Shown: piece after piece, positions 3,683-4,859 of the stretch
How the letters are laid out: the number at the start of each line of letters is the position of its first letter
Numbering within the stretch: the first letter of the stretch is position 1
Virus record (IMG/VR): IMGVR_UViG_2648501235_000011
Length of the DNA: 7,576 nucleotides
Reading direction: 5' to 3' (one strand)
Source of the DNA: a virus
Taxonomy: Duplodnaviria; Heunggongvirae; Uroviricota; Caudoviricetes
Program-made: the position numbers and the translations under genes
The notes under the pieces: generated by a model
What the model was told of the DNA's origin: nothing
Seen by the model: the letters and a program-made list of their open reading frames with translations, nothing else
Database searches by the model: none

Positions 3683-4859
3683 TCAGTCCGGTGATGAGTG
3701 CGCCATCTGTATCCGGGAACCAGCCATTGCTGTTTGTCTCAATAATGCTCGCCGGCCCCAGACGAAAACGGATTTGTGTCTCCCCCGGGTCGCCCTTCGG
3801 TCCCTGAGGTCCGGTTGCCCCCACCGGGCCAGCCGCACCTGTTTCTCCTTTCGGTCCCTGTGGGCCTGCCGGGCCTGCCGCACCGGTATCTCCCTTTGGA
3901 CCCTGTGGACCTGCATTTCCCGTCAGACCGGTCTCTCCCCGCTCTCCCCTGTCACCTTTCGGCCCCTGCGGGCCTGCAGGACCAGCATCACCTGCCGGTC
4001 CCCGTTCGCCGGTTGCCCCGACAGGGCCGGTGTCACCGCGCTCTCCCTTATCACCCTTCGGCCCCTGAGGACCCGCGGGCCCCTGTTCCCCCTTTGGCCC
4101 GGGAGGTCCCACCACGGTGGGGATTCGGTTTACGGCTTCTTCCGCCGCTATCCTGCTTTGTTCCGCTGACTGTGCGCTTTCTGCTGACTCCCGGGCTTTT
4201 TCTGTTGCGGTCGTTGCATCCCTGGCTGCATTACCGGCTGCACTTTCTGCCGTCTTTTTTGACAACTCAGCATCTGCTGCACTTTGTAATGACTCACTGG
4301 CTTTTTGAGCGGCCTCAGAGGCCGAGGACGAGGACGCTTCCTCTGACTTCTTTGCAGCGGCTGCACTTTCTGCCGCCTGCCGGGCTGACTCCGATGCCTC
4401 CCCTGCTGAAGTGTCAGCATTTGCCGCGCTCTCTTCTGCCTGACTGGCTGATATGCCGGCATTCCTCGCTGACGTCTCCGCCTCTCCGGCATTCTTCTTC
4501 GCCTCCCCGGCGTGACGCGCTGCCTCTTCCACCATTTGTTCAAAGCGACGCAGTGCCTCCGGACGGACGTCATCCTCCGACATGGCACCGAGAAAATCAT
4601 TCAGCGTACCCGGCTGAGAATCTTCATACACGGTGATGGTCCCGGCATGTGACGGCGGGAACCCTTCCACCAACAGAATAACGCTGTACTGACCGTACTC
4701 AACGTCCATGCTGTAACGACCGGCTTCATCCGGATTTTCTGAGGCCAGCGTGTTCACCACCACCGTGGTGCTGTTACGTTTTGCTTTCAGCTGGATTGTG
4801 CAGTTCTGTACCGGTTTTCCTGTGCCGTCTTTCAGTACACCTGAAATCTTTACTGCCAT
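3546..4859 (-). CDS. stf: Lambda-like side tail fibre protein (Stf), N-terminal and central part, with collagen-like Gly-X-Y tract
   Basis: ORF track frame runs 3546-4865 from GTG; I place the start at ATG 4857-4859 so the product begins MAVKISGVLKDGTGKPVQNCTIQLKA..., the conserved N-terminus I recall for lambda Stf. SD-like GGGGTGA sits upstream. TGA at 3546-3548. Contains an Ala/Glu/Ser-rich low-complexity region (about nt 4131-4532) and 37 uninterrupted G-X-Y triplets (nt 3777-4109), then one ~60-aa repeat (RFRLGPASIIETNSNGW...GPWQDVKG). Confidence 0.88.
   Translation of the reverse strand: MAVKISGVLKDGTGKPVQNCTIQLKAKRNSTTVVVNTLASENPDEAGRYSMDVEYGQYSVILLVEGFPPSHAGTITVYEDSQPGTLNDFLGAMSEDDVRPEALRRFEQMVEEAARHAGEAKKNAGEAETSARNAGISASQAEESAANADTSAGEASESARQAAESAAAAKKSEEASSSSASEAAQKASESLQSAADAELSKKTAESAAGNAARDATTATEKARESAESAQSAEQSRIAAEEAVNRIPTVVGPPGPKGEQGPAGPQGPKGDKGERGDTGPVGATGERGPAGDAGPAGPQGPKGDRGERGETGLTGNAGPQGPKGDTGAAGPAGPQGPKGETGAAGPVGATGPQGPKGDPGETQIRFRLGPASIIETNSNGWFPDTDGALITGLTFLDPKDATQVQGLFQHLQVRFGDGPWQDVKGLDEVGSDTGSSGE
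3777..4109 (-). repeat. Collagen-like Gly-X-Y triplet tract (37 uninterrupted triplets) inside stf
   Basis: Residues 253-363 of the stf translation: GPP GPK GEQ GPA GPQ GPK GDK GER ... GPQ GPK GDP GET. The unit GPQGPKGD recurs five times. Visible on the plus strand as a G/C-rich run of Pro/Gly codon complements. Confidence 0.9.

Follow-up and report, generated by a model that had tools for sequence, protein, structure and literature searches.

The 7,576-nt stretch of Caudoviricetes DNA analysed here (IMG/VR virus record IMGVR_UViG_2648501235_000011, henceforth the window) carries on its minus strand a side tail fibre gene in which a collagen-like tract is embedded. The gene occupies 3546..4859, from an ATG at 4859 to a stop codon at 3546-3548, and its 437-aa product was assigned to the EPclA type from the open reading frame (ORF) list, Pfam and alignments. 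The mechanical ORF is marginally longer (3546..4865, 439 aa, starting from a GTG at 4865), and the ATG at 4859 is the start chosen both by RefSeq and in the phage 434 record. Pfam recognised three domains in the protein, PF08400 (phage_tail_N), PF01391 (Collagen, over the tract) and PF06820 (Phage_fiber_C), and the complete domain order is PfN, an Ala/Ser/Glu coiled coil (PCoil), the collagen domain (Col) and PfC.

The Col domain, translated from the minus strand of 3777..4109, is a single unbroken run of 37 Gly-X-Y triplets (111 aa), exactly where the first-pass annotation, made from the letters of the window, had placed an uninterrupted tract inside a tail fibre gene. Over 5000 codon shuffles of the fibre gene the longest run reached 6 triplets (mean 2.7), and the second-longest Gly-X-Y run in all six frames of the window was of 4, so that a run of 37 lies well outside what chance would produce. 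Among the 37 triplets, Pro fills 48.6% of X positions and Asp/Glu 35%, while Y positions are taken by Lys/Arg (30%), Ala (22%), Thr (22%) and Gln (16%); there are 10 K/R-G-D/E junctions and 21.6% of the residues are charged. The GC content of the tract is 70.6%, against 47% for the window. A foreign origin of the tract was considered on these grounds and rejected, its GGN/CCN codon content being a sufficient cause.

The tract is internally repetitive. Five copies of GPQGPKG, each followed by D or E, were located on the minus strand at 4053..4073, 3954..3974, 3891..3911, 3846..3866 and 3792..3812 (copies 1 to 5), all by translation and, at the DNA level, as repeat family D2 for copy 1 and by a repeat search for the others. 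Four of them continue as GPQGPKGD (starting at aa 265, 298, 319 and 352 in the 439-aa numbering) and copy 4 as GPQGPKGE (aa 334). The five occurrences of GPQGPKGD counted earlier are thus four, and the number five is right for GPQGPKG, or for GPQGPKG[D/E]. Tandem Repeats Finder (TRF) additionally detected an imperfect 45-nt tandem duplication at 3824..3914 (2.0 copies, 84% match), the unit of which corresponds to 5 triplets. Charge pairs of the K/R-G-D/E kind and Pro in the X position stabilise triple helices devoid of hydroxyproline, as is known from work on collagen peptides, and it is for this reason, in our reading, that GPQGPKG[D/E] recurs.

The domains on either side of the tract are those of a phage fibre. 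PfN (aa 1-133, 4461..4859, minus strand), the collar domain attaching the fibre to the tail tip, was matched by PF08400 over profile positions 1-133 of 134 (E 3.6e-69), and aa 1-93 match the N-terminal collar domain of the Ur-lambda Stf (PDB 9E7M, chain Ta; E 2.2e-52), which in the Ur-lambda virion touches gpV and gpM and is flexibly linked to a trimeric shaft (PMC12617516). PfC (aa 362-437, 3549..3776, minus strand), the C-terminal trimerisation and nucleation knob, was matched by PF06820 over the whole profile (positions 1-64 of 64; E 6.1e-36). Between PfN and Col lies the 117-aa PCoil (4110..4460, minus strand), recognised by its composition (Ala 31.6%, Ser 18.8%, Glu 14.5%, with just 6.8% L+I+V+M+F) and by an Ala periodicity that peaks at 3.5 residues, a peak reached by none of 2000 shuffles; its length and composition agree with the 116-aa PCoil described by Ghosh et al. 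2012 (PMC3368898). In homologues the length of this segment varies, the collagen starting at aa 188, 210, 224, 251 or 264 in cluster representatives. Since the lengths of PCoil and of the tract both vary, two segments of the stalk can change length independently. At 4318-4336 the PCoil region contains a short 6-nt repeat, GAGGAC x3.2.

These features identify the fibre as EPclA, a protein with the arrangement PfN-PCoil-Col-PfC that was defined in prophages of E. coli O157:H7 (Ghosh et al. 2012, PLoS One 7:e37872; PMC3368898), with ECs2717 and ECs2941/VT1-Sakai H0004 (prophage Sp15) among the examples. Most O157:H7 copies are of 437 aa, with a 116-aa PCoil and a 111-aa Col (their Table 2), a recurring GP(Q/P)-GPK-G(D/E) pattern was remarked upon in the same work, and the X/Y preferences reported above fit the published EPclP profile (their Table 4) almost to the percent. 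Along 437 aa and without gaps, our fibre is 98.9% identical to WP_012578868 of E2348/69, 96.1% to VT1-Sakai H0004 (Sp15, listed as EPclA) and 95.9% to the side tail fibre of phage 434 (UMO75288.1). The Col domain is identical to that of H0004 at 111 of 111 residues, so that all 17 substitutions between the two proteins fall outside it. The PfN, the PCoil, a single unbroken Col, the PfC and a lambdoid-prophage tail module are all present, the last in the form of the C-terminus of J and Lom immediately upstream, an order shared with E2348/69, phage 434 and VT1-Sakai.

The suspicion that the fibre might be a frameshifted pseudogene, raised by a second PF06820 match in an overlapping ORF (3275..3676), was rejected because RefSeq, phage 434 and VT1-Sakai each annotate two genes here, of 437 and 89 aa.

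Length variation and repeat junctions

To describe variation at the protein level, the longest Gly-X-Y run was recorded in 120 cluster representatives of this protein. It ranges from 4 to 38 triplets, with modes at 19, 9 and 37, the 9-triplet group consisting mostly of EPclD-type fibres with an S74 C-terminus. Col domains of 63, 78, 81, 111, 114 and 144 aa are found in the EPclA tables of Ghosh et al. (PMC3368898). Both sources bear out the earlier proposal that the number of triplets varies and alters fibre length.

Each shorter PfC-type tract was then fitted as one internal deletion of the 37-triplet form. This single-deletion model could be fitted to all 37 distinct shorter tracts, with 0-3 mismatches in 35 of them. 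The ambiguity zone of the junction spans a GPQGPKG copy in 17 of the 37 tracts, which correspond to 39 of 65 representatives, and other junctions lie within duplicated GPVGATG, TGAAGP, GPKG or GERG strings. The 19-triplet length is reached through two distinct removals of 18 triplets, one joining copy 1 to copy 3 and the other copy 2 to copy 5, and must therefore have arisen at least twice. At the DNA level, the fibre gene of strain Z1323HEC0423, which lies in the same genomic context, lacks exactly 45 nt and encodes 32 triplets; the absent segment is one TRF repeat unit (3840..3884 of the window), flanked by the 8-nt direct repeat GGTGCGGC. The junctions in repeated motifs, together with this unit loss, agree with the first-pass view of the nested repeats as prone to recombination or slippage, and support the idea that they drive length change.

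Two fibre genes in the same genomic context are annotated as frameshifted. In CP024155.1, 1 nt is missing from a GGGGG run where the tract begins (equivalent to around window position 4092), and in AP018488.1 a stretch of 23 nt is deleted inside PfC (equivalent to around 3641-3663); from the assemblies, real pseudogenes and sequencing errors are indistinguishable in both.

Gene neighbourhood, antisense frames and distribution

The fibre gene is preceded by the C-terminal part of J and by lom. A terminator-like hairpin (4876..4897, minus strand, from a sequence scan) separates lom from the fibre gene and is followed by GGGGTGA and the ATG, and the annotation of phage 434 has a terminator and a ribosome-binding site at the equivalent place. 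A second terminator-like hairpin, A7-CCGGAG-TCCGG-CTCCGG-T5 (3229..3261, minus strand), was read directly after the next gene downstream; the consensus scan did not report it, and phage 434 is annotated with a terminator there too.

The gene between the fibre and this second hairpin encodes an 89-aa stand-alone PfC protein (3275..3544, minus strand; PF06820, E 1.2e-35), with its ATG 1 nt after the fibre stop codon. It consists of a 28-residue Cys-rich leader (…CGCGKHDDC…) and a PfC domain that is 39% identical to the fibre's own, and its exact sequence occurs on 997 contigs. The protein is labelled 'tail fiber assembly chaperone' in phage 434 and 'phage tail fiber C-terminal domain-containing protein' in RefSeq, while its homologue in phage Sp5, ORF68, is dispensable and has been suggested to act as a reservoir for the exchange of C-termini (PMC5155283). 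The 89-aa protein may be a chaperone, a distal subunit or a recombination cassette.

Further downstream follow, in order, a truncated NleG, EspW, another NleG and an EspM2-like protein, so that cargo of type III secretion system effectors lies directly beyond the tail fibre module (2690..3169, minus strand; 774..1424 and 1503..2561, plus strand; 1..591, minus strand). The set comprises NleG, an intact NleG, EspW and EspM2 or a 'bfpT-regulated chaperone-like' protein of the IpaB_EvcA family. The first NleG is marked as N-terminally truncated by RefSeq in loci of the same context. Across strains, the segment from the fibre to EspW holds 1 to 3 NleG genes or an IS2 insertion.

Two long ORFs run antisense to the fibre gene on the plus strand, at 3225..4169 (314 aa) and 3776..4636 (286 aa). 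They exist because the GGN-CCN periodic tract leaves two plus-strand frames free of stops across its length, and we regard both as by-products rather than genes. Both are indeed present as first annotated; the description of them as Pro-rich suits 3776..4636 (19.9% Pro) but not 3225..4169, which is rich in Ser, Leu and Arg and has 8.6% Pro. None of the fetched loci carries a RefSeq annotation on the plus strand over the tract. An exact look-up of both ORFs in the protein collection gave no hits, an uninformative result given that the exact fibre sequence is absent there as well. The warning that such frames could be mis-annotated did prove justified once, in orf22 of phage cdtI (BAF63354.1, a hypothetical protein), which is antisense to the fibre gene and, across 252 aa, shares 94% identity with the translated ORF 3225-4169. 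This orf22 is located at 1002..1760 (minus strand) of AB285204.1; that record also starts the fibre gene late, at 462 instead of about 312, and gives it an overlapping orf21.

To survey distribution, 601 nt around the tract were compared with 5426 complete E. coli genomes. The query was present in 718 of them (13%), at 6177 places in all and with a median of 10 and a maximum of 15 places per tract-bearing genome, the best place being at least 99% identical in 485 records. The pair formed by the fibre and the PfC-only gene is found in 386 phage records, among them phages 434 and cdtI and many Shiga toxin (Stx) phages of the Stx1 and Stx2 kinds. The best match of the whole window among the complete E. 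coli genomes searched is 96.8%, none being identical. The fibre gene is nearest to that of enteropathogenic E. coli (EPEC) E2348/69 (98.2% DNA identity), and the effector part to O111:H2-like and other strains, in which IS2 interrupts the region. This suggests either a mosaic prophage or a source outside the genome collection.

Interpretation and relation to known fibres

Recombinant EPclA from Sakai is a stable trimer with a true collagen triple helix, as demonstrated by circular dichroism (CD), size-exclusion chromatography with multi-angle laser light scattering, and electron microscopy (EM) (PMC3368898). It has a collagen CD signature with a melting temperature of 42 C, the coiled coil undergoing its own transition near 52 C, and appears by EM as a dumbbell with a hinged stalk, whose collagen portion is thin (~30 nm long) and whose coiled-coil portion is thicker (~16 nm long); PfC and PCoil each act as a trimerisation module, and a melted Col-PfC fragment regains its fold quickly (PMC3368898). 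These experiments, along with the Pfam matches to PF08400, PF01391 and PF06820, substantiate the original suggestion of a collagen-like triple helix in a phage fibre. By the 111/111 identity of its Col domain with that of a Sakai EPclA, VT1-Sakai H0004, the fibre described here would probably likewise be trimeric and triple-helical.

We consider it very probable, taking the reading as a whole, that a lambdoid prophage encodes here an EPclA-type side fibre with the tract as its Col domain, that this domain serves as a stiff spacer and that it undergoes occasional in-frame deletions. The PfC knob would hold three chains together at their C-termini, and from it the 111-residue Gly-X-Y segment would zip into a triple helix of about 30-32 nm (at 0.286 nm per residue the predicted length is about 32 nm). 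In place of hydroxyproline, the helix would be stabilised by the K/R-G-D/E pairs and by Pro, which occupies about half of the X positions. N-terminal to the helix would come a hinge, then a coiled coil that is trimeric, Ala/Ser-rich and about 16 nm long, and then the PfN collar, which would anchor the fibre to the tail tip. The collagen segment would thus act as a thin, stiff spacer, the number of triplets setting the reach of the distal PfC knob from the tail. That number would shift through occasional in-frame deletions, possibly also duplications, between dispersed imperfect repeats, and exchange among the many co-resident prophage copies would contribute to the change, with no involvement of high-rate slippage.

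The first-pass annotation went further and spoke of contingency-like variation. A true contingency locus, at which high-frequency slipped-strand mispairing switches fibre length within a lineage, would fit the wide range of lengths across the family, and could also draw on two events in a comparison of 12 loci, the loss of the 45-nt unit between its 8-nt direct repeats in one and the 1-nt deletion in the G5 run inside the tract in another. Eleven of these loci share the context J-lom-fibre-PfC-NleG-EspW-NleG-EspM2 and come from serotypes O111:H2, O103:H2, O26:H11, O55:H7 and O157:H7 as well as several untyped strains, and the twelfth is E2348/69 (O127:H6), with a different downstream cargo. 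Of the 12, which come from strains that are not clonal, 10 have 37 triplets, one has 32 and one is annotated as frameshifted at the G5 run. In an even sample of 60 from the 729 matching records, 56 match the full 601-nt query with no change of length and one is 9 nt shorter; phages 434 and cdtI have 37 triplets as well. The sequence itself contains no perfect tandem repeat, TRF yielding just the 45-nt pair at 84% match, and the dispersed DNA copies are 60-80% identical, with a longest exact repeat of 11 nt. At the protein level all changes are in frame, so that no on/off switching takes place. With repeats this imperfect and an allele this steady across very different serotypes, the term overstates the variation, and we hold a contingency locus to be very unlikely. 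The 37-triplet allele is the stable, dominant form, its length changes are rare and in frame, and recombination between co-resident prophages probably spreads them, a suggestion also made by Ghosh et al. (PMC3368898). Hardly credible in our judgement is the alternative that the collagen-like protein works for the bacterium, as a surface adhesin expressed by the lysogen or a mimic of host matrix like streptococcal Scl1/Scl2, carried as a moron. The gene does sit between lom, a lysogen-expressed outer-membrane protein, and the effector cargo NleG, EspW and EspM2; the 13% of complete E. coli genomes with the tract are, in the records listed, largely of enterohaemorrhagic (EHEC) or EPEC serotypes, and Ghosh et al. 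leave room for a role in the bacterium (PMC3368898). Its N-terminus, however, is the tail-collar domain found in the Ur-lambda virion, and inspection of the sequence, with no predictor run, revealed no signal peptide or anchor. The hairpin and ribosome-binding site assign the gene to the late tail module, in agreement with the phage 434 annotation. A phage fibre role is supported by the presence of the same gene pair in viable phages, the laboratory phage 434 and cdtI, and in Stx phages, and the related EPclB of phage Sp5 was placed at the tail end by immuno-EM and is essential, deletion of its gene having abolished infection (PMC5155283).

A bolder version of the EPclA spacer reading makes the repeat copies GPQGPKG[D/E], GPVGATG and TGAAGP built-in breakpoints and the length of the tract an adaptive host-range dial that matches the thickness of O-antigen or capsule. 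Stalks would then come in discrete lengths (e.g. 8, 14, 19, 25, 26, 32 and 37 triplets, roughly 7 to 32 nm), selected and common to co-resident prophages and not the product of neutral indel noise. The recurrent, independently derived 19-triplet alleles are compatible with such a dial without demonstrating it, and literature searches on phage 434 side fibres and collagen, and on length variation of collagen tail fibres, returned no study of the function of tract length for these phages. We think this version unlikely, if somewhat less so than the contingency locus. Several points also weigh against the spacer reading itself. The junction pattern would look the same if shorter forms had been lengthened by repeat-mediated duplication, so that deletion rather than expansion is an assumed direction. 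Some of the short alleles lie on short draft contigs, where misassembly could account for them; however, 19-triplet alleles are also found on contigs of 5.5-5.7 Mb. Receptor binding by PfC would be by analogy, EPclA having no known receptor, and no structure exists for the Col or PfC region of this protein. Finally, the window covers just the tail end of a prophage that may or may not still make particles.

What this analysis establishes is the family identity of the fibre, its conservation and context, and the pattern of deletion junctions; the trimer, the triple helix, the dimensions and the trimerisation by PfC were demonstrated by others, in experiments on near-identical proteins. The collagen-like stalk is real but ordinary, its sequence, structure and variability having been described before; the mapping of deletion junctions to internal repeats is our sole increment, and current understanding is unchanged. 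The subject matters in that EPclA-type fibres are carried by lambdoid and Stx phages that move Shiga toxin and type III effector genes between E. coli strains. Fibre length and the distal knob may have a bearing on the choice of strains open to lysogenisation. For annotators, the tract is real coding sequence, whose stop-free antisense frames have already been deposited as a hypothetical protein, and the triplet count is a usable allele marker for separating the many near-identical prophage copies in EHEC genomes.

Among known systems, BclA turns up as a PDB match for the fibre protein (1wck_A). Bacillus anthracis BclA and Streptococcus Scl1/Scl2 similarly have Gly-X-Y repeats without hydroxyproline, nucleated by a globular trimerising domain, and a strain-variable number of triplets that sets the length of the filament. 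They differ in being Thr-rich bacterial surface proteins with other flanking domains and not parts of phage tails. The Ur-lambda Stf (PDB 9E7M; PMC12617516) has a homologous N-terminal collar, is also a trimeric, hinged side fibre and is also placed after J and lom. Lambda Stf is distinguished by a coiled-coil shaft, Pf2 repeats and a gp37-like distal domain, by its need for Tfa and by having neither collagen tract nor PfC; in our fibre the Pfam search gave no PF03406 match, and the gene downstream is the PfC-only protein and not Tfa. EPclB (933W L0121, Sp5 ORF67/ECs1228) and EPclD have the PfN, PCoil and collagen modules in common with our fibre. EPclB also has the PfC and the same 89-aa PfC-only ORF downstream, whereas EPclD fibres end in a peptidase S74 C-terminus, with a PF13884 domain in place of PfC. 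Phage 434 shares the 37 triplets, the two-gene arrangement, the terminators and the ribosome-binding site, and differs in being a viable phage and in its downstream cargo, which is NleB/NleC/NleH-like where the window has NleG/EspW/EspM2. With EPclA, the fibre has the architecture, the 437-aa length, the 111-aa Col, the X/Y preferences and the prophage tail context in common, and we find no difference of substance between them.

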